Of a DNA stretch of 31,989 nucleotides, positions 2,728 through 19,307 are shown in pieces. The position numbers and the translations under genes are program-made. The first letter of the stretch is position 1, and the number at the start of each line of letters is the position of its first letter. A model generated the notes under the pieces. It did not search any database. It was not told where the DNA came from and was given only the letters and a program-made list of their open reading frames with translations. This DNA is from an uncultured Planctomycetales bacterium (GTDB lineage Bacteria > Planctomycetota > Phycisphaerae > UBA1845 > JAFGLZ01), in NCBI GenBank assembly GCA_964390905.1, contig CAYMLO010000119.1, positions 1 to 31,989 on the forward strand, written 5' to 3'.

Positions 2728-2812
2728 ATGAGCGTCCTTGCCCCTGCCTGCCAGGAACGTCTATCCTCTGGGGGGTGTAGAGTTCGCGTCGCGCCGTCCA
2801 GGACCAGAAGCG

Positions 2813-4516
2813 ATGGCCACCGACGATCGGCCCTGGGTCAAATCCTACGACGAATGGGTCAACCCGGATCTTCCTGTCCCGGATACCTCCTATGTTGACC
2901 TGCTGGAGCAGACCTTCTGCGATTTCCCGGACCACGCGGCGTACCATTTCATGGGCGTCAGCGACACGTTCGGCGACCTGGACGAAAAGTCCCGGCGATT
3001 CGCCGGTTTCCTCGCCGAGATCGGTTGTGAGCCGGGAGACGTCGTCGGGATCTGCCTGCCCAACACCCCCCAGTACATGATCGCCCACGCGGGTGCGCTG
3101 CGAGCAGGATGCGTGGTCAGCGGGGTGTCGCCCCTCCTGTCTGCCAGAGAGATGGCGTATCAGCTCAGTGACTGTCGTGCCCGGGTCCTGGTGGTCCTGG
3201 ACGCGGTGTTCGAGCACAGGCTTCTGGACGTCCACGAGCAGGTGCCCGACCTCAGTCACGTCGTGGTGACCAACATCGCCGACTCGCTCCCGCGACTCAA
3301 GCGCCTCCTCGGCAAGATGCTGGGGAAGATCCCTACCGGTCGGACCGTCCCCGTGCCCGGCAAGACCATCGTCGGGTTCGGCGAGATCCTGCGAACGACC
3401 GCGCCGGGATGTCCCGAGGTCGAAGTAAGGCCCGAGGACATCTGCATGATCATGTACACCGGGGGGACGACGGGCCCGGCGAAGGGGGCCGAGATCACCC
3501 ACCGCAACCTGTCGGCCTTCGTTCATCAGGGCGTCAACTTGATTAACGCAGACCCGGGGGCGGAAATCTGCTGCTCCGCGGCGCCGTTCTTCCATATTGC
3601 CGGATCGGCTGTGAACATGTGGTGCATGGCCATGGCTTGCGCGCAGGTGCTTATCCCGGATCCGCGGAATACGCGCCACCTCGCCCGCCAGATCGCACGG
3701 CATCGGCCCACGTTCATGTTCAACGTCCCGTCGCTGTACCAGCTGCTCCTGGCCGACCCCGCATTCACGTCGCTGGACGCCTCCGTGTTTGAGCCGCTGC
3801 GGGCCTGCCTCTCCGGAGCTGCCCCCTTCTCGATGGAGACCATCCGAGGCCTGGAGCGTACGGTGGGCGAGGGCAAGGCCATCGAGCTCTACGGGATGAC
3901 CGAGGCGACGGCCCTCGTGACCATAAACCCCCTCGACGGGATCAAGAAACATGGCTCGGTGGGGCTGCCCATCCAGAATACGTGGGTCAAGCTGGTCGAC
4001 CTGGAAACCGGCAAGCGGGAGGTCCCCCTCGGCCAGGAAGGCGAGATCATCGTCAGCGGCCCTATCGTCATGAAGGGCTACCACAACAGGCCCGACGAGA
4101 CCGCCCACGCCCTGCGCGAGTTTCAGGGCAGGCGGTGGATGTTCACGGGCGACGTCGGCAGGATGGACGAGGACGGATACGTTTACATCATCGACCGGGC
4201 CAAGGACATGATCAACGTGGGGGGGTTCAAGGTCTTCTCGGTGGAGACCGAGGAGGTCCTGCACGAGCATCCGGCCGTGGCCTGCTGCGCTGTCGTGGGG
4301 CTGCCCAACCCCAAACGTCCGGGCAGCGAACTGGTCAAGGCCGTCATCCAACCTGCGCCCCAGTACAAGGATCGTGACGCCGCCGAGCTGAAGGACCAGA
4401 TCATCGACCACTGCCGTCGAAACCTGGCCCCTTACAAGGTGCCCAAGATCGTTGAGTTCGTGGACGAGATCCCGATGACGCCCGTCGGCAAGGTGGACAA
4501 GAAGGCCTTGCGGTGA
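2813..4516 (+). CDS. AMP-forming acyl-CoA synthetase / long-chain fatty acid-CoA ligase (ANL superfamily).
   Basis: AMP-binding signature MYTGGTTGPAKGAEITHRNL. YGMTEA, GDVGRMDEDGYVYIIDRAKDMI, and C-terminal PKIVEFVDEIPMTPVGKVDKKAL. The track start at 2738 (TTG) would abut the lysA stop. ATG at 2813 is preceded by AGGA and gives the typical N-terminus, so the start was placed there (uncertain). Confidence 0.85.
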   Translation: MATDDRPWVKSYDEWVNPDLPVPDTSYVDLLEQTFCDFPDHAAYHFMGVSDTFGDLDEKSRRFAGFLAEIGCEPGDVVGICLPNTPQYMIAHAGALRAGCVVSGVSPLLSAREMAYQLSDCRARVLVVLDAVFEHRLLDVHEQVPDLSHVVVTNIADSLPRLKRLLGKMLGKIPTGRTVPVPGKTIVGFGEILRTTAPGCPEVEVRPEDICMIMYTGGTTGPAKGAEITHRNLSAFVHQGVNLINADPGAEICCSAAPFFHIAGSAVNMWCMAMACAQVLIPDPRNTRHLARQIARHRPTFMFNVPSLYQLLLADPAFTSLDASVFEPLRACLSGAAPFSMETIRGLERTVGEGKAIELYGMTEATALVTINPLDGIKKHGSVGLPIQNTWVKLVDLETGKREVPLGQEGEIIVSGPIVMKGYHNRPDETAHALREFQGRRWMFTGDVGRMDEDGYVYIIDRAKDMINVGGFKVFSVETEEVLHEHPAVACCAVVGLPNPKRPGSELVKAVIQPAPQYKDRDAAELKDQIIDHCRRNLAPYKVPKIVEFVDEIPMTPVGKVDKKALR

Positions 4517-4561: not shown

Positions 4562-5020
4562 CTAGGCTACGGGTTCGAAGTGGCTGATTGCCAGGATGTT
4601 GTCCTTGGGTTCCTCGCTGAAGACCGCCTGGACGCGCATGCCGACGCGGGCGTTCTCGACCTTGCCGCACTCGAGCAGGTGGGCGACGGGCGTGTCGGCG
4701 CCGTCGAGCTTGACGAGGGCCAAGACGTAGGGGGGCGCCTTGGGCTGGTAGGGCTCGGCGTAGCGGATGACGGTAAAGCCGGTCACCTCGCCGGTGGGCG
4801 CGATCTCGACCCAGCGATCGGTCAGGTTGGAGAAGCAACGTTCACACGTCTGGCGCGGGGGAACGAACGTTTTGTCGCACGCCTCGCACCTGACGCCGAG
4901 GATCTTGCGCTCGTCGCGGAGCGCGACGATGAACTTGCTGCCGGTGGCCCCTGCGAAGTACTGGTAGGGCAGGGCCATCTTGCCTTCGATCACAAACGCG
5001 TCGCCCTTGTCCTCGCTCAT
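4562..5020 (-). CDS. DUF35 family protein: rubredoxin-like Zn ribbon plus OB-fold, the usual partner of SCP-x thiolase-fold enzymes.
   Basis: CEACDKTFVPPRQTCERCFS (CxxC-x8-CxxC ribbon) followed by an OB-fold region (VEIAPTGEVTGFTVIRY...VLALVKLDG). 152 aa. ATG start with GAGG upstream. Confidence 0.8.
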   Translation of the reverse strand: MSEDKGDAFVIEGKMALPYQYFAGATGSKFIVALRDERKILGVRCEACDKTFVPPRQTCERCFSNLTDRWVEIAPTGEVTGFTVIRYAEPYQPKAPPYVLALVKLDGADTPVAHLLECGKVENARVGMRVQAVFSEEPKDNILAISHFEPVA

Positions 5021-5061: not shown

Positions 5062-5562
5062 CTAGCCGTCGCCGCCCGCTGCATCCTCGATGATCTCGAA
5101 GTGTTTGATGTCTGTCATGGCCCCTTTGCGCTCATCTGCGTAGACGACGCGGACGCGGAGCCCGCGGCGGACCTTCTGTGGGTCTGGCGCGTCCAGCAGA
5201 TGCCAGAGCGGTGCGTGGCCCTGCGTGCCGTCCAGGTGCGCCCAGCAGGCGACGTAGGGCGTCTTGCGCGTCTCACCCGTGAGCGGGTCGGGGCTGGCGT
5301 AGTAGACCACGTCGAACTCGTGGATCACGCCCTCGGGACCCAACTCTTCCCACTCGGTTGCCTCGACGCGGCAGACCGCACACACCTCCCGGGGGGGGAG
5401 TTGGTGGCGGCCGCACTGGGGGCACTTGTTGGCCATGATCCGCTTGTTGTCGCGGAGCTCCCGAAGGAACCGCCCCATCACCGGACCGGTCGAAAAACGC
5501 TGAGGAATCGAGAGGATCTGTCGCGAGACGATCAGTTCCTGATCGGTCGTGTCTTTACCCAT
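5062..5562 (-). CDS. DUF35 family protein (Zn ribbon plus OB-fold), second paralog.
   Basis: CPQCGRHQLPPREVCAVCRV ribbon followed by an OB-fold (GVIHEFDVVYYAS...YVACWAHLDG). 166 aa. The start overlaps the upstream thiolase-like gene stop by 8 nt. Confidence 0.8.
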   Translation of the reverse strand: MGKDTTDQELIVSRQILSIPQRFSTGPVMGRFLRELRDNKRIMANKCPQCGRHQLPPREVCAVCRVEATEWEELGPEGVIHEFDVVYYASPDPLTGETRKTPYVACWAHLDGTQGHAPLWHLLDAPDPQKVRRGLRVRVVYADERKGAMTDIKHFEIIEDAAGGDG

Positions 5563-6751
5563 GGCTCGCGGCTCCCAGTTGGGGCTTGTTCTTCGACAAC
5601 AGCATCAACACCGTCCACAAGGTCCCGCCGAAGCCGGAAGCGAGCGCCAGGCGAACGGGCCCGGGCACCTGGTGGTCGCCGGCCGTCCCGCGAACTTGCA
5701 TGGCCGCCTCGGCGACGCGGACCAGCGCGGTCGCGCCGATCGGATTGCTCGCCATCACGCCTCCGGAGGGGTTGATGGCGATCTTGCCGTCCGGGCCGAT
5801 CTCGTCGTTCTCGACCATCCGGAGGTGTTCGTCGCCCTCGAGCAGCAAGAACTCCCGCATCCAGTCGAGGCCCCACCAGGCGGACGGGTCGTATACCTCG
5901 AACACGTCGAGATCGCGCACCGGATCGGTAACGCCGTTCCGGGCGAACAGCCGCTCGGCCGCCGCGCGATGCGTCGTCTGCTCCGGGGTGAACATCAGGG
6001 TCTCTTCGCGGTGTACGGTTTCGTGATCGACGACCCAGGCGGGATTGGCGTCGAAAGCGTCGACCTTGTCTTCCGATGCAAAGATCACCGCGCACGCCCC
6101 GTCGCTCTGCGAGCACATGTGCAGCATCCGCAGCTCGCCGACCAGGCGCAGGTCGGTGTCGGCGTAATCCTTGAGGTGGTTGCGGTCGAGCTGTAACCGG
6201 CGGTGCGCCTTAGCGTTGCGCATGGCGTTCTCGTCCATAATCGTTCGCAGCTTGATGGCTGCGAGCTTGGCCCGCTCCTCGCCGAACTCCTCGATGACCT
6301 GCTGCGCCGTCGTGCCGGTCAGCGCGCCGGTCTGCAGCCCACGTCCCCAGAGCGGATCGGCCATGTTGGTGATCCCGCCGGTGGTGTGGCCCTCCTGGAG
6401 CTTCTCGAAGCCGATGGCCAGGACGACATCGTGCAACCCCGAGGCCACGACGTTGTCGGCTGCGCAGGCCAGCGTCGATCCCGTCGTGCCGCCGGTGGTC
6501 AGACGGATCCCCGACTTGCCCCACGCCCCGCTGCCCAGGACGTGCCACATGTCGGGTTGATGCACCATCTCGAACAGCTCCATGTTCCCGTGCAGGACGC
6601 AGTCGACGTCGTCCAGGGCCAGCCGGGCGTCTTCGAGGGCCTCGACGACGGCCTCGTGGATCATTTCGGGTTGGTTGACCTCTTCGCGGTGGCTGGAGAA
6701 CTTCGACATCCCACAGCCGATGACGGCCACGTTTCGGTTCTTGGTCTTCAT
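5555..6751 (-). CDS. SCP-x type thiolase-fold protein that appears to lack the nucleophilic Cys; Ltp2-like.
   Basis: N-terminus NVAVIGCGMSKF is typical of SCP2 thiolases. GSTLA....ASGLHDVVLAIGFEKL matches the SCP-x block C-ATGSTAL....QGGxxDxVLxxGxEKM, but with G in place of the catalytic Cys (by-eye alignment). C-terminal INPSGG and ALASGFGG. RBS AGGAAGG before ATG 6751. Confidence 0.8.
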   Translation of the reverse strand: MKTKNRNVAVIGCGMSKFSSHREEVNQPEMIHEAVVEALEDARLALDDVDCVLHGNMELFEMVHQPDMWHVLGSGAWGKSGIRLTTGGTTGSTLACAADNVVASGLHDVVLAIGFEKLQEGHTTGGITNMADPLWGRGLQTGALTGTTAQQVIEEFGEERAKLAAIKLRTIMDENAMRNAKAHRRLQLDRNHLKDYADTDLRLVGELRMLHMCSQSDGACAVIFASEDKVDAFDANPAWVVDHETVHREETLMFTPEQTTHRAAAERLFARNGVTDPVRDLDVFEVYDPSAWWGLDWMREFLLLEGDEHLRMVENDEIGPDGKIAINPSGGVMASNPIGATALVRVAEAAMQVRGTAGDHQVPGPVRLALASGFGGTLWTVLMLLSKNKPQLGAASHG

Positions 6752-6809
6752 GCCGTCTGCCTTCCTGCTGTCGTCCTCACTGCGAGCGCGCTGCGCAGCG
6801 TCTTCTTCC

Positions 6810-7952
6810 CTAGCTTTCCAGCACGACGACCGTCTGCAACTGTCCGGCCGGTCCGGTCGCGCCCTGGGCGACGGCGCGCTTGGCGTCGGCCACCTGCCGA
6901 TCGCCCGCCTCGCCGCGCAGTTGAATGACGGCCTCGGCCATCCGGGCCATGCCGCCCAGCATGAGGGGGTTGCCGGCCAACATCCCGCCCGAGCGGTTCA
7001 CGTTGTCGTTGTCCGGTCCGCCGTCGCTCAGCCACTGGCCACCGCCGCCGGCCTCGCATAGGCCCAACCCTTCTGCGTATTGGGGCAACTGGTGCGCGTA
7101 CTGATCGGCGATCTCGACGACGTCGAACGCCTGCTTCGGATTATCGATTCCTGCCATGGCGTAGGCGCGCTCGGCGGCTCGCTGCAGGGCGAAGTTGCCC
7201 GCCAGGTCGCGCTCGCCCAGGAAGAAGCTGTCGTGGCAATTGCCGAGGCCCGTGACCCAAATGGGGCGGTCGGTGATCTCGGCGGCGCGCTGCTCGCTCG
7301 CGAGAATCATCGCCACCGCGCCGTCGGACACCGGGTACATGAAGGCCTCGCGGATCGGGTCGGCGAGCATGGGCGACGCCAGCGCTTCCTGTCGGCTGAG
7401 CGGCTTGTTGTCCTGGGCCACGGGGTTCTTGCTCGCCCACTGCCGGGCCCGAACGACCAGGTCAGCCAACTGTTCTTCGGTTACCCCCGACCGGGCCATG
7501 TAGGCCTGCGCCTGCATCGCCGCCGTCGCGAGATAGTCCAGCCCCACCGGCCGGGTGTAGAACGGATCAAACGCCAGGTGCGTCACCATGTTTCGGCTGG
7601 CCGGCTGCGACTCCTTGCAGTGTCCGGCGAGCAGCACGACGTCGTGGTGGCCCGACAGGATGACCGACGTGGCGTAGTACACCCCCTGCGCACCGTCGGC
7701 GGCGACCTTCTCCTCGCTCTGGAAATGGGCGCCAACCACGTCCGTCATCGCGCTGTCGGAGATCGTGCGGGCGTCGAAGACGTCGTCGGAGACCGTAACG
7801 GCCGCCTGGATGCCGTCCTCGCCGAACGCGAGGTGAGTCTGTTGGCGGACGGCGTCGACCACCTCCCAAACCATCCCCTGCATGCGGGCGTCCCACCTGT
7901 TGGTCTCGAACTTGGTTTGCGCGACCGCGCAGATAGCGACACGATTGGCCAC
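6810..7952 (-). CDS. SCP-x type thiolase-fold protein, second paralog, also apparently lacking the nucleophilic Cys.
   Basis: RVAICAVAQTKF N-terminus. AADGAQG....LSGHHDVVLLAGHCKE aligns to CATGSTA....QGGxxDxVL with A in the Cys position. C-terminal GGMLAGNPL. The track start at 7982 is TTG and would overlap PHP by 25 nt. GTG at 7952 is preceded by GGAGGT at the correct spacing and gives an M-ANRVAICAV N-terminus, so that start was chosen. Confidence 0.75.
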   Translation of the reverse strand: MANRVAICAVAQTKFETNRWDARMQGMVWEVVDAVRQQTHLAFGEDGIQAAVTVSDDVFDARTISDSAMTDVVGAHFQSEEKVAADGAQGVYYATSVILSGHHDVVLLAGHCKESQPASRNMVTHLAFDPFYTRPVGLDYLATAAMQAQAYMARSGVTEEQLADLVVRARQWASKNPVAQDNKPLSRQEALASPMLADPIREAFMYPVSDGAVAMILASEQRAAEITDRPIWVTGLGNCHDSFFLGERDLAGNFALQRAAERAYAMAGIDNPKQAFDVVEIADQYAHQLPQYAEGLGLCEAGGGGQWLSDGGPDNDNVNRSGGMLAGNPLMLGGMARMAEAVIQLRGEAGDRQVADAKRAVAQGATGPAGQLQTVVVLES

Positions 7953-7957
7953 GGGCC

Positions 7958-8572
7958 CTACCTCCAACCGATGTTCGTCCAATCGGACTGCGACGCCGTC
8001 GAATTATAGCAGATCCGGGCCTGGCCGTTTTTGATGGCCCGGAGGATGGCGTCTGGCTCCCTCTGGCAGTCTACCTCGACCCAGGCCCGGCCGCAGCCGT
8101 CGCGTGTGTGCGAATCGTCGGCGGTCACCTTGGGGCGGGGGATTTCGTCGACGTCGTACTCCGGCGTGTAGAAGCCCCGCAGCGTCACCTCGACGGCGTG
8201 GATGGGCAGGGTCTTCTCGATCTCGTTGATCCGCTCGACGACCTGATCGACGGTGAAGCCGTATTGCGCCGGATGGTTCAGGATGTTGAGCTCCTCGCGC
8301 TCGCCGCGGATCTGGCCTACGTGGAGGTAGCCCCAGGCAAAGACGCTCCGCTCGACGCCCTTGAAGACGAGCATGCCCTCGAACTCGTCGGGGACGTCCT
8401 CGTAGGCGTCAGGCCTGAACAGGAAGTCGTGATCGGTTAGGGCCACGAAGTCGAAGCCGAGATCGGCGTAGACCCGCAGGACCTCATGAGGCGACAGATC
8501 GCCGTCGCTGCAGGTGGTGTGTGTGTGGAGCGCACCTTTCAATGAGCGTGGGTTGTCGGTGGGTTGCTCCAC
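7958..8572 (-). CDS. PHP-domain metal-dependent phosphoesterase.
   Basis: LHTHTTCSDGDLSP (PHP motif I HxHxxxSDG). FVALTDHD, NHP, HAVEV. 204 aa. Embedded between the MaoC and thiolase-like genes on the same strand. Confidence 0.75.
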   Translation of the reverse strand: MEQPTDNPRSLKGALHTHTTCSDGDLSPHEVLRVYADLGFDFVALTDHDFLFRPDAYEDVPDEFEGMLVFKGVERSVFAWGYLHVGQIRGEREELNILNHPAQYGFTVDQVVERINEIEKTLPIHAVEVTLRGFYTPEYDVDEIPRPKVTADDSHTRDGCGRAWVEVDCQREPDAILRAIKNGQARICYNSTASQSDWTNIGWR

Positions 8573-8575
8573 GAT

Positions 8576-9112
8576 CTACTCCGAGGGCGGCGTGGCGTCG
8601 CGCATCATGTACATGACCTTCCACTCGCCCTCCTGGCAGACCTCGTTGCGCTGATTCATCACCTTCACGTCGAACGTGACGATGCCCAGGCCGGGCTTGC
8701 TGGTGGTTCGCTTGCTGGCGATGGTCTGTATGACGTAGATGGTATCGCCGATGAAGACGGGGTTTCTGAAATCCCACGTCAGGCCGAGGAAGGCGACGAT
8801 CCGGTGCTGATCCGCCCCGGGCATGCGCGCCGCCAGCCCCGACGCGAGCGACAAGCCCAGCAGGCCGTGCGCGATCCGCTGACCGAAGGGGGTGATCTTG
8901 ACGAACTCGGCGTCGGTATGGATCACGTTGAAATCGCCGGACAGCCCCGCGAAGTTGACGATGTCCGTTTCGGTGACCGTCCGTGCCGGCGACGTCGTCT
9001 CATGCCCGACCGCGACGTCCTCGTAGTGAACACCATCTGAAACGTCCACGCGTTCGTCCTTTCCGTAAGTCAGGTCCGCCGGCCCAACGAGCCCTGGGTC
9101 GGGTAGGCTCAC
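8576..9112 (-). CDS. MaoC-like (R)-specific enoyl-CoA hydratase/dehydratase, hot-dog fold.
   Basis: FAGLSGDFNVIHTDAEFVK....GQRIAHGLLGLSL....GDTIYV is the MaoC dehydratase signature. 178 aa. The start codon is GTG at 9112 with no strong RBS, so the start is uncertain. Confidence 0.78.
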   Translation of the reverse strand: MSLPDPGLVGPADLTYGKDERVDVSDGVHYEDVAVGHETTSPARTVTETDIVNFAGLSGDFNVIHTDAEFVKITPFGQRIAHGLLGLSLASGLAARMPGADQHRIVAFLGLTWDFRNPVFIGDTIYVIQTIASKRTTSKPGLGIVTFDVKVMNQRNEVCQEGEWKVMYMMRDATPPSE

Positions 9113-9254: not shown

Positions 9255-10403
9255 TCACATCGTCCGCTTGACGATCTCTCGGGCGATGATGAGGCGCTGG
9301 ATCTCCGAGGTGCCGGCGCCGATGACGCCGAGCTTGGCGTCACGCATCATCCGCTCGACTTCGTATTCCTGCATGTACCCGTATCCGCCGTGAATCTGGA
9401 CGGCTTCGGAGGCGGCCCGCATGGCCGCCTCGGACGCGAACAGCTTGGCGTGCGACGCCTCGGCCGAGCAGCGGACCCCGCGATCACACAGGTCGGCGGC
9501 TTTGTAGGTGAGCATCCGAGCGGCCTCGAGTTCCATGCTCATGTTGGCCAGCTTCTCGGCGACCATCTCGAACATCACGATGGGCTGCCCGAACTGCTGC
9601 CGTTCCTTGGCGTAGGCGATCGACTTGTCGAGCGCCGCCTGGATCATGCCCACCCCCAACGCGCCGCCGACTGCCCGCTCGACGTCGAGCCCGCCGAGCA
9701 GGATCCCCAGCGCTTCGTTTTCGCCCTTCACCAGGTTCTCGGTGGGCACGCGGCAGTCTTTGAAGAACAGCTCGCCCGTCGGCGATCCGCGGACGCCCAT
9801 CTTGTGCAGCGGCTCGCCGACCGAGAATCCGGGAAAACACCGCTCGATGATGAAGAAGCTGATGCCGCGGGGGCCGGCCTCCTTGTCCGTCCGGGCGTAG
9901 ACCAGAAAGACGTCGGCCACCGGGGCGTTGGTGATGAACGTCTTGCTGCCGTTCAGGACGTACTCGTCCCCTTGCCGGACCGCCGAGGTGGTCAGAGACA
10001 GCACGTCCGACCCCGCGCCCGGCTCGGTCATGGCAAGAGACCCCAGCTTCTTGCCACTGGCCAGGTCGGGCAGGTACTTCTGCTTCTGCTCCTCCGAGCC
10101 ATTGCACGCGAGCGAATGGTTGACCAACACTGCGGACGCCAGGTACGACAACGCCGTGGAGGGGCAGGCGTACGTGACCTCCTCGGCGATCAGGCAGCAC
10201 GTCAGAACCGATTGGTCCGTCCCGCCGTACGCTTCCGGCACCAGCACGCCCATCAGGCCCAGCTCGCTCATTTTCTTGAACGTCTCGACCGGGAACCGCG
10301 ACTCGCGGTCGACCTCCGCGGCCAGCGGCGCGATCTCGTTCCTTGCAAACTTGCGGACCATGTTCTGGATGTCGCGCTGCTCGTCGGTCAGGCTGAAATC
10401 CAT
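9255..10403 (-). CDS. Acyl-CoA dehydrogenase (FAD-dependent).
   Basis: MDFSLTDEQRDIQNMVRKFARNEIAP....YGGYGYMQEYEVERMMRDAKLGVIGAGTSEIQRLIIAREI, canonical ACAD N- and C-terminal blocks. The track start at 10448 adds 15 residues. ATG at 10403 is preceded by GGAAGGAG, so it was chosen (382 aa). Confidence 0.9.
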   Translation of the reverse strand: MDFSLTDEQRDIQNMVRKFARNEIAPLAAEVDRESRFPVETFKKMSELGLMGVLVPEAYGGTDQSVLTCCLIAEEVTYACPSTALSYLASAVLVNHSLACNGSEEQKQKYLPDLASGKKLGSLAMTEPGAGSDVLSLTTSAVRQGDEYVLNGSKTFITNAPVADVFLVYARTDKEAGPRGISFFIIERCFPGFSVGEPLHKMGVRGSPTGELFFKDCRVPTENLVKGENEALGILLGGLDVERAVGGALGVGMIQAALDKSIAYAKERQQFGQPIVMFEMVAEKLANMSMELEAARMLTYKAADLCDRGVRCSAEASHAKLFASEAAMRAASEAVQIHGGYGYMQEYEVERMMRDAKLGVIGAGTSEIQRLIIAREIVKRTM

Positions 10404-10436
10404 GGGTGTTGCTCCTTCCTGCCCGCCGCGAGACGG

Positions 10437-10473
10437 TTGACGGGGCATTGCGTGGTGACGTGCGGAACGTCAA
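10437..10473. promoter_or_regulatory. Candidate operator in the divergent ACAD-operon / Gfo promoter region: TGACG half-sites (TTGACG, GTGACG) and an inverted CGTCAA.
   Basis: Seen in sequence: ttGACGgggcattgcgtgGTGACGtgcggaaCGTCAa. TGACG-N7-CGTCA is a 5-bp inverted repeat. It lies 35-70 nt upstream of the ACAD start on the minus strand. No regulator gene is adjacent. Confidence 0.2.
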
Positions 10474-10639: not shown

Positions 10640-11686
10640 ATGGCTGCCGAACCCCTTCGTTTCGCTCTGATCGGTGCCGGCATGGTGTCGGACGCGCACG
10701 CCAGATCCCTTGGCGAACTGCCCGATGCCGAGTTGGTGGTGGTCTTCTCGCGGACCGAGGCCCGAGCGAAGGCGTTTGCGGACAAGTACGGCGTGGCGTT
10801 CTCGACGGACCTGAAAGACGTCTTCGGCCGATCCGACGTCGATGCGGTGATCATCACGACCGCGCCCTACAACCACGAGCCACACGCCGTCGCGGCGATG
10901 CGGGCGGGCAAGCACGCGCTGGTCGAGAAGCCGATGGCCGTCACCACGGCCGAGTGCGACCACATGATGCAGGTCGCCGACGAGACGAGCCGGACGCTCG
11001 GCGTGATCTTCCAGAGCCGGTTCAAGCGGGACGTCCTGCGGGTCAAGGAGATGGTCGACACGGGGAGGCTCGGCGACCTGTTGCACGTCAGCGGCTACGT
11101 CAAGTGGTATCGCCCGCAGAGCTACTACGAAGCCAACGACTGGCGGGGCAAGACCGCCACCGAAGGCGGTGGCGTGGTCTTCTCGCAGGCCGGCCACACG
11201 CTGGATCTGATGCGGTGGATCGGCGGGCCCGTCGAATGGGTGTTCACGAACATGGTGACCGCGCCCGTCCACGAGGGCATCGAGATCGAGAACCTGGGCA
11301 CGGTGACGATGCGGTTCGCCAACGGCGCGACCGGCGTGCTGGAGGCGGCGACCGCGCTGTACCCCGGCCTGCCGGAGACGTTGGCCGTGCACGGCTCGAA
11401 CGGCACGGTCGTGCTCGAGGCCGGCGACGTCGTCACGTGGGAGATCCAGGACGCCGCCCCCGAAGATGCAGAACCGCCGAAGGAGTCCGACGAGGGCAGC
11501 GGCACGGGCGCGTCGGACCCCATGGCGTTCCCGATTACCTGGCACAAGATGCAGATCGCTGACTTCATCGACGCCGTGCGGACCGGTCGGCCGACTCAGA
11601 TGGATGGGCATCAGGGACGGATGCTCAACGAGGTGTGCGAGGCCATCTACGAATCCGCCCGAACGCTCAGCGTGGTCAGGCTCTAG
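10640..11686 (+). CDS. Gfo/Idh/MocA family NAD(P)-dependent oxidoreductase.
   Basis: LRFALIGAGMVSDAHARSL (Rossmann GxGxxS). AVVITTAPYNHEPHAVAAMRAGKHALVEKP (EKP motif). Strong RBS AGGAGGAG 7 nt upstream of the ATG. 348 aa. Confidence 0.85.
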   Translation: MAAEPLRFALIGAGMVSDAHARSLGELPDAELVVVFSRTEARAKAFADKYGVAFSTDLKDVFGRSDVDAVIITTAPYNHEPHAVAAMRAGKHALVEKPMAVTTAECDHMMQVADETSRTLGVIFQSRFKRDVLRVKEMVDTGRLGDLLHVSGYVKWYRPQSYYEANDWRGKTATEGGGVVFSQAGHTLDLMRWIGGPVEWVFTNMVTAPVHEGIEIENLGTVTMRFANGATGVLEAATALYPGLPETLAVHGSNGTVVLEAGDVVTWEIQDAAPEDAEPPKESDEGSGTGASDPMAFPITWHKMQIADFIDAVRTGRPTQMDGHQGRMLNEVCEAIYESARTLSVVRL

Positions 11687-11892: not shown

Positions 11893-13908
11893 CTACTTCA
11901 CCCGCTCGGGCTTCGCGAAGTCGCTGGTCATTTCGACCGGTAGGCGGAAGACGTCGCCGTCTTTGTTGCAGAAGTACAGCCGGGAGTCCGATGGCCGTCG
12001 GCCGTGCCCGTCGGCCCAGAAGGCGTAGAAGTCCGGGTGGGCGTGGACGGGTCGGCGGACGTAGGTGTGGTTGTACGCGCTGTCCTGGGTCATCTGGCGC
12101 GTCATCTTCCAGTGTCTGCCCTGGTCGCGGCTGACCCACATGGCCACCTCACCCCCCGGGTTGAAGGGCTGCGGCCCGGTCTGCGTCGGGCCGATGATCC
12201 GCCACGCGTTCTCGGCCTCGATATAGATCGACCCGGTGTCGTAGTTGTTGTCCGAGATGATGTCACCGCCTTGCACGTCCCATTCCGTGCCGGTCCACCG
12301 AGCGGTGGTCCAGGTTCGCGGCATGTTTTTCGGGCCGGACTCATAGCCCTTGCTCGTGACGTAGAGGATGATGGGGTGGCCCTTGGCGTCGAAGTTGATG
12401 TCTTTCAGATAGACATTGAGCCGCTTGCTTTCGTACTCGCAGGCCAGCGCCGGATTGTCGGCCTTGGACAGCATCAATTCGAGCGCCTGGCCCTGAACGC
12501 TCTTCCAGGTCTCCCCGAAGTCGTCTGATTCCATGTAGTAGAGGTTGGTCCGCCAGTTCAAGCCCTTGGTATCCGGATGGTAGTTGAAGGCGATGCCGAC
12601 CTTCTTGTCTTGGTAGCACCGGCTGATCTGGTAGTGGCCGCGGGCAATCCTCGAGAGGAACCGACGCTCGGACCAGTTCACCCCGTCCGGGCTGGTCATC
12701 ATGCAATTGGACCGGCCCTCGGTGTAGTGCGTGTGGATGAACAGGAACCCCCTGCCCGGCAGGTACCAGGGATGAGGATAGGAGTAGTTGCCCTCCCAGA
12801 CACATTCGAACTGATCGACGGCGTGCGGCTTGGTGCTTCTTGAGATGTAGGACGGCCGGCTGGTCCCGTGGCTGCTGGAGAAGATCCAGATCGTGCCCTT
12901 GTCGTCGACGCTGATGACGGGATTGTCGTGGGCGTCGCTGGTCTTCTTGTCCAGCAGGAGGGTCGGGCGGGGGACCTGGCCGGTCCTGTGGTCGTAGTAG
13001 GAGACCATGTGGACCAGCGCGGTGTTGCTGCCTTTCCTGGTTCCGCCGTAGGTGAAGAAGGTCTTGTCGGCCTGCTTGACGTACCAGGCATGGGGGATGT
13101 GCTTGGCGCAGTAGGTGCCCAGCCCGCCGCTGTACTTGTATTTGTACTCGTCGTTGGAGCGTTGGTTGTAGTACCAGATCCCGCGGTAGCCGTCGTCCTT
13201 TCGGTTCATGATCAAGGCCGCCTTCTTCGCACGCCTGGCTGTCAGCGTACCGGGCGCCTGACTGGCCCACGTCTGCCCGGCCAGCCCGGCCTGGGTCCAT
13301 CGCCCGGCCAGTCCCTTGTCGAGATCTCCGTTTTGCTTGCCGGCGGCGACGGCGGCAATCTCCTCGTCACACAACACGCGTCGCCAGAGTCGGACGTCGG
13401 CCAACCAGCCATTCACGAAGCGATCGCTCTCGTTCAGGGCGCCGATGAACAGATCTCCCGACGGAACGGTCATCTTGCCCGGCGCCTTGGTCGTGGCCGT
13501 CAGCTTGCCGTCCCGGTAGGCCTTAATCACCTTGCCGTCGTAGCTGCCGGCGTAGTGCACCCAGATGTTGGCCTTGGGGGACGGGGCGGTGGCATGGGCG
13601 TAGGCGGGATCCTGGTGCCCGACGAGCATCCGCACGTTCCCTTTGTACAGATAGAACGTAAAGACATTGTTCGCCCGACCGCAGTTCAAGAAGACCTGTG
13701 ATCCCCCAGCCGATCGCAGCTTGACCCAGGCCGAGACGGTGATGGCCTGCGGATTGAGGGCGACGGCCCTGGCGGGAACGTGGTAGGCCGTCCTGCCGTC
13801 AAACGCGACGCCGTCGGCTGGCGCCGCGAGTGCAGCCGCACACGATCCCATCACGGTTGCGCAGGCGAATAGAAGACGTGCCCACCATCGACTGCATCGA
13901 TCCCTCAT
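11893..13908 (-). CDS. Secreted protein with an N-terminal LamG / concanavalin-A-like lectin domain followed by a BNR_4-like beta-propeller; putative polysaccharide-active enzyme.
   Basis: Signal peptide MRDRCSRWWARLLFACATVMGSCAAALAAPA. The LamG pattern is SAWVKL...FIGAL...GWLADVRLWRRVL. The second domain is rich in aromatic and Gly residues (YYNQRSNDEYKYKYSGG...FSSSHGTS). The track start at 13968 is GTG and overlaps the upstream gene. ATG at 13908 gives the signal peptide directly. Confidence 0.6.
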   Translation of the reverse strand: MRDRCSRWWARLLFACATVMGSCAAALAAPADGVAFDGRTAYHVPARAVALNPQAITVSAWVKLRSAGGSQVFLNCGRANNVFTFYLYKGNVRMLVGHQDPAYAHATAPSPKANIWVHYAGSYDGKVIKAYRDGKLTATTKAPGKMTVPSGDLFIGALNESDRFVNGWLADVRLWRRVLCDEEIAAVAAGKQNGDLDKGLAGRWTQAGLAGQTWASQAPGTLTARRAKKAALIMNRKDDGYRGIWYYNQRSNDEYKYKYSGGLGTYCAKHIPHAWYVKQADKTFFTYGGTRKGSNTALVHMVSYYDHRTGQVPRPTLLLDKKTSDAHDNPVISVDDKGTIWIFSSSHGTSRPSYISRSTKPHAVDQFECVWEGNYSYPHPWYLPGRGFLFIHTHYTEGRSNCMMTSPDGVNWSERRFLSRIARGHYQISRCYQDKKVGIAFNYHPDTKGLNWRTNLYYMESDDFGETWKSVQGQALELMLSKADNPALACEYESKRLNVYLKDINFDAKGHPIILYVTSKGYESGPKNMPRTWTTARWTGTEWDVQGGDIISDNNYDTGSIYIEAENAWRIIGPTQTGPQPFNPGGEVAMWVSRDQGRHWKMTRQMTQDSAYNHTYVRRPVHAHPDFYAFWADGHGRRPSDSRLYFCNKDGDVFRLPVEMTSDFAKPERVK

Positions 13909-15869: not shown

Positions 15870-16155
15870 TGGAAGCTCCTGAGATCAACCGCATGCCCGC
15901 GCGCCGAACGTGGCGCGCGAAGCCGACCCTTCCGTATTCGTGTCCGACGACTATACCCACGCTCGGGTCGAAGCGAAAGGCGACGCGGCGAGCGGATCCG
16001 CCGTGCTTACGGATGACCTCTCGCAGATCCCATGGCGCCCTTCTGGTAGACTGGTATGGCGCCCTGCGGCGGCTTGGCCGGCTGTGTCGGATCGGGCACC
16101 GCCGGAGGGCCTTGGCACGGTGAGTCCCGGGCGAGGCCGGGAGGCAGGTTGCCGC

Positions 16156-17226
16156 ATGAACACACAGACCCCCCAGCGCATGGGATTCGCCTGCGCCTAC
16201 ACGCCCCTCCCGATTATCGATGCGGCCGGCTTCGTGCCCTTTCGCGTGCTGCCCATGGGCGACGCTCCGGATCAGGCCGGATCGTTCTTGCACGACAACA
16301 TCTGTCCCCATGTCAAGCGGGTCCTCGACCGCGCGTTGGGCGGCGACGTGCCCGAACTGGCCGGCGTGGTCTTGATGAATAGCTGCGACGCGATGCGACG
16401 GGTGTCGGATGCCTGGGCGACGGCCCGACCGGCGGATCGGGTCATCACGCTCGACCTGCCCATCGCATGCGACGACACGTCCGTGGCCCACTTCAAAGCG
16501 GAACTCGCACGGCTGATGGAGCGCCTCTCGGAATGGTCGGGTCGTCCGGTGACGGTCGAGGAGGTCGTTCAGAGCGTTGATCGCTACAACGCGTTGGCAG
16601 CCGGGCTGGAGCGCCTCGCTGACTACGCAGCAGTGGGCGCTCTGTCCGGGGGGCACCGGGTCCTCCAGGAGATCTTTAACCGATCGGTGACCCGGTCGGT
16701 GGACGAATCCCTGACCGAACTGGACCGGTTGGCGGCCGGGCAAGGCGATTCTCAACAGACCGATCCGGGCGTGCCGGTGCTCTTGTTCGGCAACGTGCTG
16801 CCGGACCCGGAGGCGCTTGAACTGCTCGAGGCCTGTGGCTGCCGTGTCGTGGCCGATGACGTCTGCACGGGGTCGAGGCAACTGGTGTGCTACCAGCTCG
16901 ACGGCCAGGAGGACCCGTTGGCGCAGCTTGCCCATGCGATCCTGTCCAGGCCGGCGTGTGCGCGGACGCTCGTCAGCCCGCAGGCGGGACTCTTGGCCGG
17001 GCAGGTGGCGGCTCGGGCGAGAGAATGTGGAGCGAAGGGCGCGATCGCCCACGTGATGAAGTTCTGTGACCCCTATTTGGCCCGGCTACCGGCCATCCGA
17101 GACGCGCTTCGTGAGGCCGGCCTGCCCCTGCTCGTGCTGGAGGGTGACTGCACGCTGCGGTCGCTGGGTCAACACCGAACGCGGATCGAGGCCTTCGTCG
17201 AGATGCTGGGAGGGTCCCCGCCATGA
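16156..17226 (+). CDS. 2-hydroxyacyl-CoA dehydratase / benzoyl-CoA reductase family D-component subunit (HgdB/BcrB-like, PF06050).
   Basis: N-terminus MGFACAYTPLPIIDAAGFVPFRV (the family's CxYxPxEIIxAAG start). Conserved Cys ligands ICPH, MNSCDAMRR, KFCDPY. The track start at 15910 adds about 80 residues of low-complexity sequence. ATG at 16156 is preceded by GGGAGG, so it was chosen. Confidence 0.75.
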   Translation: MNTQTPQRMGFACAYTPLPIIDAAGFVPFRVLPMGDAPDQAGSFLHDNICPHVKRVLDRALGGDVPELAGVVLMNSCDAMRRVSDAWATARPADRVITLDLPIACDDTSVAHFKAELARLMERLSEWSGRPVTVEEVVQSVDRYNALAAGLERLADYAAVGALSGGHRVLQEIFNRSVTRSVDESLTELDRLAAGQGDSQQTDPGVPVLLFGNVLPDPEALELLEACGCRVVADDVCTGSRQLVCYQLDGQEDPLAQLAHAILSRPACARTLVSPQAGLLAGQVAARARECGAKGAIAHVMKFCDPYLARLPAIRDALREAGLPLLVLEGDCTLRSLGQHRTRIEAFVEMLGGSPP

Positions 17227-18473
17227 TATTGCCCTACATCAAGGAGCTGGCCGCCGGGATTGAGGCGTCGCTTCGCTCGGATCCGAACCAGGACAGCGCT
17301 CGCAAGCGATTCACGCTCGAGATCGCCCGGCTCGGCATCCGGTTGTTTTCCGGCGAGGAGCGGGTGGCCTGGTGTGGGGTCTTTGCGCCCTTCGATCTTC
17401 TGACGGCCGTGGGGGTGACCTCGTGCTTTGCCGAGTTCGTGGGGGGCTGGTTGGCGACCATCGGGGCGGTTCAGCCCATGCTGGAAAAGGCTGAGCAGGC
17501 GGGGTACTCGACGGACTCGTGCAGCTACCATCGGGGCGTCATCGGTGCTGCTTTGGAGGGCATGATGCCCGAGCCGGACTTCCTGATTGCCACCTCGACG
17601 CCGTGCAGTGGCGGCATGGCGACCACCGAGAACCTTTCGCGGCATTTCAGCAAGGACCTGTTTACGATCCACATCCCGCGTGACGACGGCCCGGAGGGCG
17701 TGAAGTACTTGGCTGATCAGTATCGCGCCATGGTTGACTTCGTCACCGCGCAGATCGGCCAGCCTATGGATGCGGCGCGCCTGCGACAGGCCATGGAGAA
17801 GACCAACCGGGCGCGGGCCCTGCTGGACGAGGCGTACGCGTTGGCCCAGGCGGTGCCCACGCCAGCCCGCCGCCGCGATATGAGCAACCTTGGCATCGTG
17901 CTTCCGCTTCTGTTTGGCTCCGAGGCGGGAATCGAGGTCGCCCGAGCCTACCGCGACGAGTTCGCCCGAAAGGTCAAGGCCAAGATCGCCGGTGTGCCCG
18001 GCGAACGGATCCGGCTGATGTGGTTGCAGAATCGCATTCAGTTCAGCAACCCCCTGGAACAGTGGCTCGAAGAGGAGCATAAGGCGGTGCTGGTCTTCGA
18101 CGAACTCAACCAGATCTGCTGGGACCCGATCGATCTGGAGGATCCCTACATCGGTTTGGCTAGGCGGGCGCTGTCGATTCCCTTGGGCGGTCCGATCGAG
18201 CGCCGGATCAGGAACCTACAGCAACACGCGCGGGCCTACCGGGTGGACGGCGCGATCAACCCCTGCCATTGGGGGTGCCGTCAGGGCACCGGCGGCCGGG
18301 GCCTGGTCGAGCGGGGCCTAAAAGAGGTCGGCGTGCCTGTGTTGAACCTGGAGGTCGACTGCGTCGACCCCAGGCATTTCTCGGAAGGTCAGCTCAGGAC
18401 TCGCCTCGAGGCCTTCATCGAGATGATCGAAGGCAGGGGAGCGGGGGGCGCGAGACTGGAGGTGGCGAGCTGA
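17223..18473 (+). CDS. 2-hydroxyacyl-CoA dehydratase family D-component, large subunit (HgdA/BcrC-like).
   Basis: CSYHRGVIG, TPCSGGMATT and INPCHWGCRQG Cys motifs typical of HgdA-type subunits. ATGA start/stop overlap with the upstream subunit gene suggests translational coupling. 416 aa. Confidence 0.75.
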   Translation: MILPYIKELAAGIEASLRSDPNQDSARKRFTLEIARLGIRLFSGEERVAWCGVFAPFDLLTAVGVTSCFAEFVGGWLATIGAVQPMLEKAEQAGYSTDSCSYHRGVIGAALEGMMPEPDFLIATSTPCSGGMATTENLSRHFSKDLFTIHIPRDDGPEGVKYLADQYRAMVDFVTAQIGQPMDAARLRQAMEKTNRARALLDEAYALAQAVPTPARRRDMSNLGIVLPLLFGSEAGIEVARAYRDEFARKVKAKIAGVPGERIRLMWLQNRIQFSNPLEQWLEEEHKAVLVFDELNQICWDPIDLEDPYIGLARRALSIPLGGPIERRIRNLQQHARAYRVDGAINPCHWGCRQGTGGRGLVERGLKEVGVPVLNLEVDCVDPRHFSEGQLRTRLEAFIEMIEGRGAGGARLEVAS

Positions 18474-19307
18474 ATGGGGATCGGGTTTCGGGGCCCGGGG
18501 TCCGAGGCGAGTGGGTTCGACATGTATTATCTTGGCGTAGACATTGGCAGCTTGACGTGTGATGCGGTCCTGATCGACGAGGACGGGTGGGTGATGGCCT
18601 GGTCGGTGGTTCCGACGGGCGCGAGCAGTGTCCGGGCTATCGATCGTGTGCGGGCCGAAGTACTCGGCGCTGCTGGGATCAGGTCGGAGGATCTGGGCGC
18701 CGTGATCTCGACCGGCTACGGCCGGGATCGCGTTGACGGACGATTGGCGGCGGTGACCGAGATCACCTGCCACGCCCGGGGGATTCAGAGGTTACTGCCC
18801 GGCACCGAGATGTTGGTGGACATCGGTGGCCAAGACAGCAAGGCCGTCCGCCTCGACGGGGAGGGGCGGGTGGTGGAGTTCGCGATGAACGACAAGTGCG
18901 CGGCCGGGACGGGGCGATTCCTGGAGGCGATGGCCCGCGCGCTGGAGGTGGAGGTGGATCAGCTAGGCGGCCTGGACGACGGAGCGCGGGGCAACCTGAC
19001 ACTGAGCAGCATGTGCACGGTATTCGCAGAGAGCGAGGTGGTCTCGCTGATCGCCGAGGGGACCGACGTGTCCGAGATCGCGCGGGGCCTACACCGAGCG
19101 ATTGCTTCGCGGACCCAGGCGTTGGTCAAGCGGGTCGATCCTGCGGTTTCGGGTCTCCGTGTGGCGATGTCCGGCGGCGTAGCGCGAAACCCCGGCGTGG
19201 TCCGGGCGCTCGGCGCCGCCTTGGACTGCGACATCACCGTGCCCCCCGAGCCCGACATCGTCGGCGCCCTGGGCGCCGCCCTCATCGCCCGAGAGCGCGC
19301 CGGCTAG
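18474..19307 (+). CDS. CoA-substrate-specific enzyme activase (BadF/BadG/BcrA/BcrD/HgdC ATPase family); electron-transfer activator for the dehydratase.
   Basis: MYYLGVDIGSLTCDAVLID (ASKHA phosphate-1). ISTGYGRD. DIGGQDSKAV. MNDKCAAGTGRFLE. SGGVARNPGVVRALGAAL. The two Cys probably bridge the [4Fe-4S] cluster. The start may instead be the internal ATG at 18519. Confidence 0.85.
   Translation: MGIGFRGPGSEASGFDMYYLGVDIGSLTCDAVLIDEDGWVMAWSVVPTGASSVRAIDRVRAEVLGAAGIRSEDLGAVISTGYGRDRVDGRLAAVTEITCHARGIQRLLPGTEMLVDIGGQDSKAVRLDGEGRVVEFAMNDKCAAGTGRFLEAMARALEVEVDQLGGLDDGARGNLTLSSMCTVFAESEVVSLIAEGTDVSEIARGLHRAIASRTQALVKRVDPAVSGLRVAMSGGVARNPGVVRALGAALDCDITVPPEPDIVGALGAALIARERAG

Follow-up and report, generated by a model that had tools for sequence, protein, structure and literature searches.

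Paired thiolase-fold proteins without the thiolase catalytic residues: a conserved five-gene module and its candidate role as a heteromeric lyase

We analyzed a stretch of 31,989 nucleotides (hereafter the window; contig CAYMLO010000119.1 of assembly GCA_964390905.1) from an uncultured Planctomycetales bacterium, which codes for two adjacent paralogous proteins with the SCP2-thiolase fold, here termed ThlA and ThlB. The nucleophilic cysteine, the histidine and cysteine of the HDCF motif and the histidine of the GHP motif are all absent from both proteins, and canonical thiolysis is therefore excluded for either of them. The two genes lie at the heart of a conserved module with the order PHP-like metalloprotein, ThlB, ThlA, DUF35a and DUF35b. 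By analogy with the cysteine-less aldolases Sal and Ltp2, we propose that the pair might be a heteromeric retro-aldol lyase rather than a thiolase, a reading to which we assign roughly even chances. The two central genes are as follows:

5555..6751, minus strand: ThlA, SCP2-thiolase-fold protein of 398 amino acids with an ATG start (Pfam Thiolase_C_1, 4.7e-22, and weakly Thiolase_N); codons of Gly88 at 6488-6490, Cys96 at 6464-6466, Tyr287-Asp288-Pro289 at 5885-5893 and Asn336 at 5744-5746
6810..7952, minus strand: ThlB, SCP2-thiolase-fold paralogue with a GTG start at 7952 (Pfam Thiolase_C_1, 4.4e-25, and weakly Thiolase_N); codons of Ala94/Ala95 at 7698-7703 (Ala94 at 7701-7703), Ala292-Asp-Gln-Tyr295 at 7098-7109 and Asn338 at 6969-6971

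The two genes are separated by 58 bases and their products share about 28% identity. The product of the ThlB GTG start is a protein of 380 amino acids in public gene calls (P0121, 100% identity), and a longer open reading frame (ORF) with a TTG start reaches 7982; residue numbers for ThlB follow the 390-amino-acid frame from that TTG.

Fold and catalytic residues of ThlA and ThlB

AlphaFold2 (AF2) models of ThlA (predicted local distance difference test, pLDDT, 82; predicted template-modelling score, pTM, 0.88) and ThlB (pLDDT 86; pTM 0.90) both display the SCP2-subgroup thiolase fold. Their best Foldseek matches were 6hrv, 6esq and 7yvy for ThlA and 4yzo, 6et9 and 7yvy for ThlB, and the template-modelling (TM) scores of the models to 6hrv, 6esq, 7yvy and 4yzo range from 0.76 to 0.89. 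Foldseek sets both models firmly among SCP2-type and archaeal thiolases, the BbsB thiolase, TbSLP, PhlC, Sal and Ltp2. In Pfam, the two proteins match thiolase domains only. No curated NCBIfam cut-off is reached by either protein, by their Rhodococcus relatives or by the second-module paralogues described below: the nearest families are PRK08313 for ThlA (255 bits; cut-off 514) and PRK06066 for ThlB (219 bits; cut-off 516).

For comparison with solved structures, ThlA and ThlB were each searched with phmmer against all PDB chains. In the resulting alignments, Gly88 of ThlA lies opposite the nucleophilic cysteine (N-terminal in helix N-alpha3) of 6hrv, 6hsj, 6esq and 7yvy (TTGGTTGST versus NNNCSTGST or EAACASGS), with the ThlA segment IRLTTGGTTGST pairing with INVNNNCSTGST of the zebrafish SCP2-thiolase and RVEAACASGSLA of an archaeal thiolase. 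Further along the chain, FEVYDPSAWW pairs with IELHDCFSAN, and SGGVMA-SNPIGAT with SGGLISKGHPLGAT, placing YDPS of ThlA against the HDCF of thiolases and SNP against GHP. A separate search of the PDB with a 101-residue ThlA fragment, for which five alignments were shown, set Tyr287 against the histidine of HDCF, HDAF or HDMA and Asn336 against the GHP histidine in all five solved relatives (6hsj, 6hrv, 7yvy, 4yzo and 7pxp). A MAFFT alignment of ThlA with 73 full-length representatives taken from its top 150 relatives (74 sequences in all) again placed Gly88 under the cysteine of the canonical NAC[AS][ST]G sequences.

These substitutions are conserved. Conservation was scored for each protein over 120 database homologues plus the window sequence (121 sequences each). 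The ThlA set shows no variation at Gly87, Gly88, Tyr287, Asp288 or Pro289, and 120 of its 121 sequences have Asn336. Across the five former catalytic loops of ThlA, 38 of 55 positions are invariant, as against 33% of positions in the whole protein. Judged by this conservation, the cysteine-less condition is a stable state, and neither a sequencing error nor a pseudogene.

In ThlB, the HMMER alignment places Ala94 opposite the cysteine of 7yvy (EKVAADGAQG versus EAACASGGAA). The register around the nucleophile position depends on the alignment method, with MAFFT favouring Gly97 over Ala94; the segment spanning residues 90-101, EEKVAADGAQGV, contains no cysteine in whichever register it is read. 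The phmmer alignments further pair VEIADQYAH with FEVHDAFTV and GNP with GHP, putting Ala292-Asp-Gln-Tyr at the HDCF motif and Asn338 at the GHP position. Among the 121 ThlB sequences, position 94 is alanine in 110 and otherwise serine, aspartate, threonine or proline, position 95 varies between alanine, serine, glycine and glutamine, and Asn338 is kept in 120. The equivalents of the catalytic loops are far less constrained here, with 23 of 60 positions invariant versus 21% overall, and only one of nine in the HDCF equivalent. Lacking the tyrosine, ThlB looks like a non-catalytic partner subunit.

The loss of the nucleophilic cysteine from both paralogues, originally predicted from an alignment by eye, was thus upheld by phmmer, by MAFFT and in the 121 homologues of each protein, and none of the alignments placed a cysteine at the nucleophile site of either one. 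The glycine assigned to this site in ThlA proved to be right. For ThlB an alanine was also correctly anticipated, as HMMER places Ala94 there, although the exact residue chosen, Ala95, was not recovered. The accompanying claim that neither protein is a canonical thiolase holds as well, with the HDCF histidine, its acid/base cysteine and the GHP histidine also gone. The alignments found both catalytic histidines replaced in either protein; the tyrosine that stands in for the HDCF histidine in ThlA (Tyr287), equated with the Ltp2 tyrosine through that motif, is missing from ThlB.

An exhaustive HMMER search of 1.84 billion cluster representatives recovered 2,444 relatives of ThlA at E <= 1e-3. 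Among the 73 representatives in the MAFFT alignment, 36 are ThlA-like, with Gly88, Gly91, Asn336 and usually E-x-Y-x-P/A at 285-289. A further 22 are ThlB-like, with a three-residue deletion after the nucleophile position, glycine or alanine at 88, mostly asparagine or aspartate at 336 and no Tyr287. Identity has to fall to about 30% or below before canonical thiolases with N-A-C-[AS]-[ST]-G, HDCF or HDAF, and GHP turn up, and most members of the wider ThlA-like clade retain the tyrosine to about that 30% level. Many homologues of both ThlA and ThlB carry the automated name 'acetyl-CoA C-acetyltransferase' in JGI records. This annotation is, from the sequences, almost certainly wrong, because the activity requires the missing cysteine and histidines.

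The PHP–ThlB–ThlA–DUF35a–DUF35b module

In the window, the thiolase-like pair is embedded in an operon with the following further genes, and an acyl-CoA ligase gene converges on it from the other strand:

2738..4516, plus strand: AMP-forming acyl-CoA ligase, convergent with the operon (Pfam AMP-binding, 4.3e-87); 567 amino acids in public calls
4562..5020, minus strand: DUF35b, second adaptor with a zinc ribbon (CxxC...CxxC) and an OB fold, 152 amino acids (identified with Pfam)
5062..5562, minus strand: DUF35a, adaptor with a zinc ribbon (CxxC...CxxC) and an OB fold, 166 amino acids (Pfam zf-ChsH2 and OB_ChsH2_C)
7958..8572, minus strand: PHP-family metalloprotein, 204 amino acids (Pfam PHP and PHP_C, slightly under their cut-offs)
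8576..9112, minus strand: MaoC-type (R-specific) enoyl-CoA hydratase (Pfam MaoC_dehydratas, 4.3e-25); 157 amino acids with a start near 9049 in public calls
9255..10448, minus strand: acyl-CoA dehydrogenase (Pfam Acyl-CoA_dh_N, _M and _1); 382 amino acids with a start near 10403 in public calls

The dehydrogenase, MaoC and thiolase-like genes share one orientation with tight spacing: the PHP gene begins 3 bases past the MaoC stop and ends 5 bases before the ThlB GTG, and the start of DUF35a overlaps the stop of ThlA by 8 bases. A Pfam scan of eight cluster proteins found no 3-hydroxyacyl-CoA dehydrogenase domain.

Synteny was assessed by scanning one genome per species, with tblastn mapping over 80 loci (L003-L082); two more metagenome contigs (L001 and L002) are identical to the window. 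Taxa are those named in the record titles, nearly all of which denote metagenome-assembled genomes (MAGs), and the per-gene counts have differing denominators (74, 65, 56 or 41 loci). The module is found in Phycisphaerae and Planctomycetales (84-89% identity), Hydrogenedentota, Desulfobacterales, Syntrophales, Spirochaetota, Leptospirales, Nitrospirales, Myxococcales and Balneolaceae. Two of the carriers are cultured strains, namely Desulfosarcina widdelii PP31 (L036) and D. alkanivorans PL12 (L053).

The gene order varies little. ThlB immediately precedes ThlA in 74 of 74 loci, DUF35a and DUF35b are each downstream of ThlA in 56 of 56, and in 63 of 65 a PHP gene is found no more than 1.2 kb ahead of ThlB. 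The strict ThlB-ThlA adjacency, together with the presence of both DUF35 paralogues, argues for an obligate four-protein unit. MaoC (30), acyl-CoA dehydrogenase (30) and acyl-CoA ligase (29) genes are in-locus neighbours in most of the 41 well-covered loci. The functional unit is thus larger than the thiolase-like pair and the two DUF35 proteins to which the original prediction had confined it: the PHP protein is a near-constant member, and MaoC, the dehydrogenase and the ligase are members of the same pathway. Within the module, conservation is highest in ThlA (62-89% identity across phyla); the median identity to the window protein is 68% for ThlA, against 60% for ThlB and for DUF35a, 56% for DUF35b and 53% for PHP. 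Full-text literature searches on the module found no published description of the PHP-ThlB-ThlA-DUF35a-DUF35b arrangement.

The DUF35 proteins are fused to different partners in different lineages. DUF35b and MaoC, which are separate genes in the window, form one ORF with DUF35 at the N-terminus wherever they are neighbours (28 of 28 loci, from Desulfobacterota and Myxococcota). In 28 of 30 Desulfobacterota-type loci an upstream AMP-forming ligase is likewise in one ORF with DUF35a; the ligase within the module of Desulfobacterota loci is about 30% identical to the window ligase. In D. alkanivorans PL12, the ligase-DUF35a ORF (L053, 9294-11978; 894 amino acids) has two SCP2 domains between ligase and DUF35a by Pfam, and the DUF35b-MaoC ORF follows at 12124-13014. 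In a Spirochaetota MAG (L056, 9205-15028), SCP2 domains precede DUF35a, and a beta-keto-acid cleavage enzyme domain (BKACE, 306 bits) takes the place of MaoC as the fusion partner of DUF35b; the locus continues with a crotonase, two CoA-transferase subunits and then a second, more distant DUF35-ThlB'-ThlA' module. These fusions suggest that the same core might dock different chemistry in different lineages. Further genes of the Desulfobacterales loci are a TetR gene and an acyl-CoA dehydrogenase pair, side by side, of which one lacks an N-terminal domain match (Pfam in L053; pairing in tblastn). This dehydrogenase pair resembles the heteromeric steroid acyl-CoA dehydrogenases.

In the PHP protein, ten residues are at least 97% conserved over 69 orthologues, namely His16, His18, Asp23, His48, Glu74, His84, His100, Glu128, Asp153 and His155, and we read these as its probable PHP metal-ligand set. 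The protein gave a weak match to the RNase AM/TrpH-type PHP structure 7ug9, pointing to a distant similarity to such phosphoesterases.

We also observed more distant ThlB'-ThlA' modules with 34-39% identity at L017 (12105-14432), L075 (15008-17176) and as second modules of L056 and L060. A DUF35 gene precedes the pair in the Spirochaete-type loci and follows it in L017. The L017 ThlA' reads TETCGSVG, with a cysteine one position ahead of the canonical site, and retains YNPF and TNP. The L075 ThlB' has YDAF and GHP, and the catalytic make-up thus differs between modules.

An actinobacterial relative is found on plasmid pLP1 of Rhodococcus qingshengii (L083; NZ_CP088909.1, 32175-45335), where a ThlA-like protein 34% identical to ThlA displays the signature HTGGATGG, EVYAPF and ANPIGAT. 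The gene order is two acyl-CoA dehydrogenases, MaoC N- and C-terminal halves, a truncated ThlB-like 'hypothetical protein' of 304 amino acids, the ThlA-like protein, one DUF35, a CaiB transferase, an SDR and a FadD ligase; this cluster has no PHP gene and only the one DUF35. Other ThlA matches on actinobacterial plasmids have 31-33% identity (tblastn).

Candidate chemistry and its alternatives

To our knowledge, the cysteine-less thiolase-fold aldolases described so far are two homodimeric steroid enzymes, Ltp2 and Sal, from aerobic Actinobacteria and Proteobacteria. In Ltp2 of Thermomonospora curvata (TcLtp2), Tyr294 of a Y-D-H-F motif is the base and Tyr344 the acid, and Sal of Comamonas testosteroni (CtSal) has Tyr302 and Cys304 in a Y-D-C-Y motif, with a phenylalanine variant of Tyr302 abolishing activity; both motifs correspond to the HDCF of SCP2 thiolases (PMC12329534). 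At the thiolase nucleophile position CtSal has a glycine, the backbone of which touches the substrate hydroxyl, and it assembles with the DUF35 domain of the hydratase Shy into a DUF35-Sal-Sal-DUF35 complex (PMC12329534), Shy docking on Sal through that domain (PMC11321319; PMC12329534). In Shy, DUF35 is N-terminal and MaoC C-terminal, whereas ChsH2, the partner of Ltp2, has its DUF35 at the C-terminus (PMC10398937).

The present system shares with Sal-Shy (PDB 9MYR) the SCP2-thiolase fold, the glycine at the nucleophile position, the DUF35 partner, the DUF35-MaoC hydratase architecture (fused in the orthologous loci of Desulfobacterota and Myxococcota) and the pathway order from dehydrogenase to hydratase to C-C lyase. 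Tyr287 of ThlA stands at the same first motif position as Tyr302 of Sal, an equivalence that is transitive through HDCF and not a direct alignment; ThlA does match 9myr in sequence (phmmer E = 1.3e-4), and this structure is not among the 50 Foldseek matches listed. In contrast to the Sal homodimer with one DUF35 type, there are here two diverged thiolase-like paralogues and two DUF35 paralogues, along with a PHP protein that Sal-Shy lacks. The essential Cys304 of Sal is Pro289 in ThlA and Gln294 in ThlB; ThlB also has Ala292 in place of the tyrosine, and its nucleophile segment is rich in alanine and glycine and hence ambiguous to align.

With Ltp2-ChsH2 (T. curvata and Mycobacterium; PDB 6OK1), the common points are a cysteine-less aldolase with a tyrosine base in Y-D-H-F, a DUF35 partner, and MaoC hydratase and acyl-CoA dehydrogenase genes nearby. 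It differs in its acid Tyr344, which has no counterpart here (Asn336 of ThlA, about 50 residues past Tyr287, occupies the GHP position, and its match to Tyr344 is inferred from spacing), in the third motif residue, which is proline rather than histidine in ThlA, and in the proposed heteromeric make-up of the present system with DUF35 free-standing or N-terminal to MaoC, as opposed to C-terminal in ChsH2. The actinobacterial sterol-catabolism proteins Ltp3 and Ltp4 are another parallel, being two adjacent thiolase-like paralogues. PMC6593523 (citing Wilbrink 2012) lists them as aldol lyases on genetic evidence, required for C24-branched sterol side chains. A possible link to them runs through PRK08313 and PRK07937 ('lipid-transfer protein'), both far under their cut-offs, through protein lengths and through the Rhodococcus pLP1 cluster.

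The best sequence and fold matches, which also have DUF35 partners, are the SCP2-type and archaeal thiolases (zebrafish 6HRV, M. thermolithotrophicus 6ESQ and BbsAB 7PXP), but these keep the cysteine, HDCF or HDAF, and GHP, none of which remains in ThlA or ThlB. Two other thiolase-fold proteins lack the nucleophilic cysteine, namely TbSLP of T. brucei (5AB4) and ST0096 of S. tokodaii (4YZO). TbSLP, a proposed aldolase with Y-D-C-F, differs from ThlA in keeping the motif cysteine. ST0096 has a serine at the nucleophile position and keeps HDMA and GHP, representing a partial loss state in the same fold group. Paired paralogues or a PHP partner do not figure in the sources consulted on these two proteins, whose genomic surroundings were left unexamined. 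Known steroid degraders are proteobacterial or actinobacterial, whereas the module described here belongs to mostly uncultured lineages outside those groups. In sum of residues, quaternary composition and similarity, the locus is a member of neither the Sal nor the Ltp2 clade, and it would work most like Shy-Sal. The loss of cysteine in thiolase-fold aldolases is already known.

A PhlABC/MucABC-like acyltransferase, or a thiolase/HMG-CoA synthase complex, was also considered and rejected. Such systems combine a Cys88-bearing SCP2-like subunit with a KAS III- or HMG-CoA-synthase-like one; here both subunits are SCP2-thiolase-like, there is no cysteine, and no HMG-CoA synthase or KAS III match was found in Pfam. 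PhlC and MucABC chains are mid-ranking fold matches.

In the lyase scheme, ThlA and ThlB would pair up in a heteromeric counterpart of the thiolase dimer with one DUF35 capping each subunit, an arrangement that we liken to the DUF35-aldolase-aldolase-DUF35 of ChsH2(DUF35)-Ltp2 and Shy(DUF35)-Sal; a hetero-complex is indicated because the two paralogues and the two DUF35 paralogues are always co-encoded. The ligase would activate a lipid to its acyl-CoA, the acyl-CoA dehydrogenase would desaturate it, MaoC would hydrate the product to a 3-hydroxyacyl-CoA, and ThlA would then split the C2-C3 bond to release an aldehyde or ketone and acetyl- or propionyl-CoA. Tyr287 may act as the general base on the 3-hydroxyl, with the backbone of Gly88 holding that hydroxyl and Asn336 stabilizing the thioester enolate. 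ThlB would be a structural or substrate-binding partner, and the DUF35 proteins could tether the hydratase and, in other lineages, the ligase-SCP2 lipid-binding arm. Such a division into one catalytic and one partner subunit is suggested by the asymmetry in loop conservation and by ThlA being the most conserved protein. It also sits well with the idea, present in the original prediction, that the pair and the two DUF35 proteins constitute a lyase or a scaffold: the reasoning is supported, with probably one role for each subunit. The SCP2 domains fused to DUF35a (in L053 and L056) and the paired acyl-CoA dehydrogenase genes suggest a hydrophobic substrate, possibly a bulky or branched lipid.

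The case for an aldolase rests on the glycine and tyrosine that ThlA shares with Sal and Ltp2, both of which are invariant, on an operon logic matching that of Ltp2 and Sal, and on the DUF35b-MaoC domain order, which is that of Shy. Several observations pull the other way. Both known aldolase acids are absent from ThlA, with the Sal cysteine position taken by the invariant Pro289 and the vicinity of Ltp2 Tyr344 by Asn336, and the chemistry could differ for this reason. By fold and sequence ThlA is no nearer to Ltp2 or Sal than to true thiolases, which alone appear among the five alignments shown for the 101-residue fragment, and the AF2 confidence drops below 50 at ThlA residues 87-89 and 120-135. 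The Sal/Ltp2 scheme further offers no place for the conserved PHP metalloprotein, no aldehyde dehydrogenase is encoded in the operon, and the BKACE partner in L056 is a hint that some lineages might use keto and not hydroxy chemistry.

The same gaps can be read more radically, with both thiolase-like proteins catalytically dead and serving, together with the DUF35 proteins, only as an assembly platform that channels intermediates to the PHP protein, to MaoC or BKACE, and to the ligase-SCP2 arm. All canonical catalytic residues are indeed lost from both, the known aldolase acids are missing from ThlA, and DUF35 is fused to MaoC, BKACE or ligase-SCP2 by lineage, as a docking hub would be; DUF35 is also the connector in the archaeal thiolase/HMG-CoA synthase complex (PMC12329534). 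Yet a scaffold should preserve its interfaces, whereas the invariant residues of ThlA cluster in the former active-site loops (TTGGTTG, SQSDGAC, YDP and PSGGV..NPIGA), the tyrosine persists in most of the wider ThlA-like clade, and ThlA outranks every other module protein in conservation, at the 62-89% given above. We consider a pure platform unlikely. To a like degree we consider it improbable that the pair carries out some other cysteine-independent reaction on a CoA thioester, be it decarboxylation of a malonyl- or beta-keto-type substrate, a retro-Claisen or hydrolytic cleavage involving the PHP metal centre, or the biosynthetic, aldol-forming direction. In its favour, the asparagine at the second-histidine position recalls the His-Asn pair by which condensing enzymes stabilize the enolate, in Spirochaetota the module comes with BKACE and CoA-transferase genes, and the PHP protein is nearly always present with its putative metal ligands kept. 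TbSLP, with its Y-D-C-F, slowly decarboxylates malonyl-CoA, but CtSal shows no such activity (PMC12329534). Moreover, no carboxylase or carboxyl-transferase gene was found by Pfam in the window operon, and in most lineages the dehydrogenase with MaoC and the DUF35b-MaoC fusion put a 3-hydroxyacyl-CoA directly upstream.

That at least one paralogue is still a thiolase, through a misplaced nucleophile or a nearby cysteine (Cys96, Cys213 or Cys220 of ThlA, Cys122 of ThlB), we regard as very improbable. Cys213 and Cys220 are invariant in the 121 ThlA sequences and Cys96 is present in 116 of them; the L017 paralogue has its cysteine one position early, and AF2 is unsure at exactly residues 87-89. 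However, four solved structures in the phmmer alignments and the 74-sequence MAFFT alignment all set Gly88 at the cysteine position, both histidines and the HDCF cysteine are missing, and the ThlB segment 90-101 is free of cysteine. Cys213 aligns with the second cysteine of QCCPTSDG, a motif that canonical thiolases hold in addition to their nucleophile. Cys96, in the LACAAD that had been raised as a potential substitute, falls eight residues into the helix after the nucleophile loop (residues 92-103 in the AF2 model). It is alanine or glycine in five of the 121 close homologues and is not conserved in the wider clade, its equivalent being alanine in the Rhodococcus relative and isoleucine in the second-module paralogue; on conservation and helix position it is not a plausible stand-in nucleophile.

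Returning to the retro-aldol lyase, we put forward, quite tentatively, a broader version in which the five-gene unit would be the core of an unrecognized oxygen-independent lipid-degrading machine widespread among taxa largely known as anaerobes. A new Gly/Tyr/Asn catalytic set, lacking the cysteine and a second tyrosine, would cleave beta-blocked or bulky acyl-CoAs beyond the reach of ordinary beta-oxidation, such as those from isoprenoid, steroid or hopanoid side chains, the DUF35 proteins would plug in lineage-specific modules (hydratase, BKACE or ligase-SCP2), and the PHP protein would add a second activity.

Wider significance and neighbouring genes

The locus reveals a much larger cysteine-less lineage of strictly paired ThlA and ThlB proteins, to which most of the nearest 50%-identity cluster representatives belong and which has its own active-site signature and an extra PHP metalloprotein. 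These observations point to a large, mis-annotated and uncharacterized enzyme family, for which the acetyl-CoA C-acetyltransferase labels would mislead metabolic reconstructions of the uncultured groups concerned. If ThlA is a true aldolase, it would provide organisms of sediments and digesters with a route to shorten lipid chains that block beta-oxidation, and it would represent a third solution to the missing-acid problem of this enzyme class.

Beyond the operon, the window codes on the plus strand at 15910-19307 for two HGD-D family proteins (2-hydroxyacyl-CoA dehydratase component D), followed by a BcrAD/BadFG-type activator ATPase. Together they make up a radical dehydratase system, some 5 kb away from the operon. 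Closer by, a divergent gene for a Gfo/Idh/MocA-family oxidoreductase (10640-11686, plus strand) adjoins the acyl-CoA dehydrogenase, and among L001-L082 it was matched only in the two contigs identical to the window.

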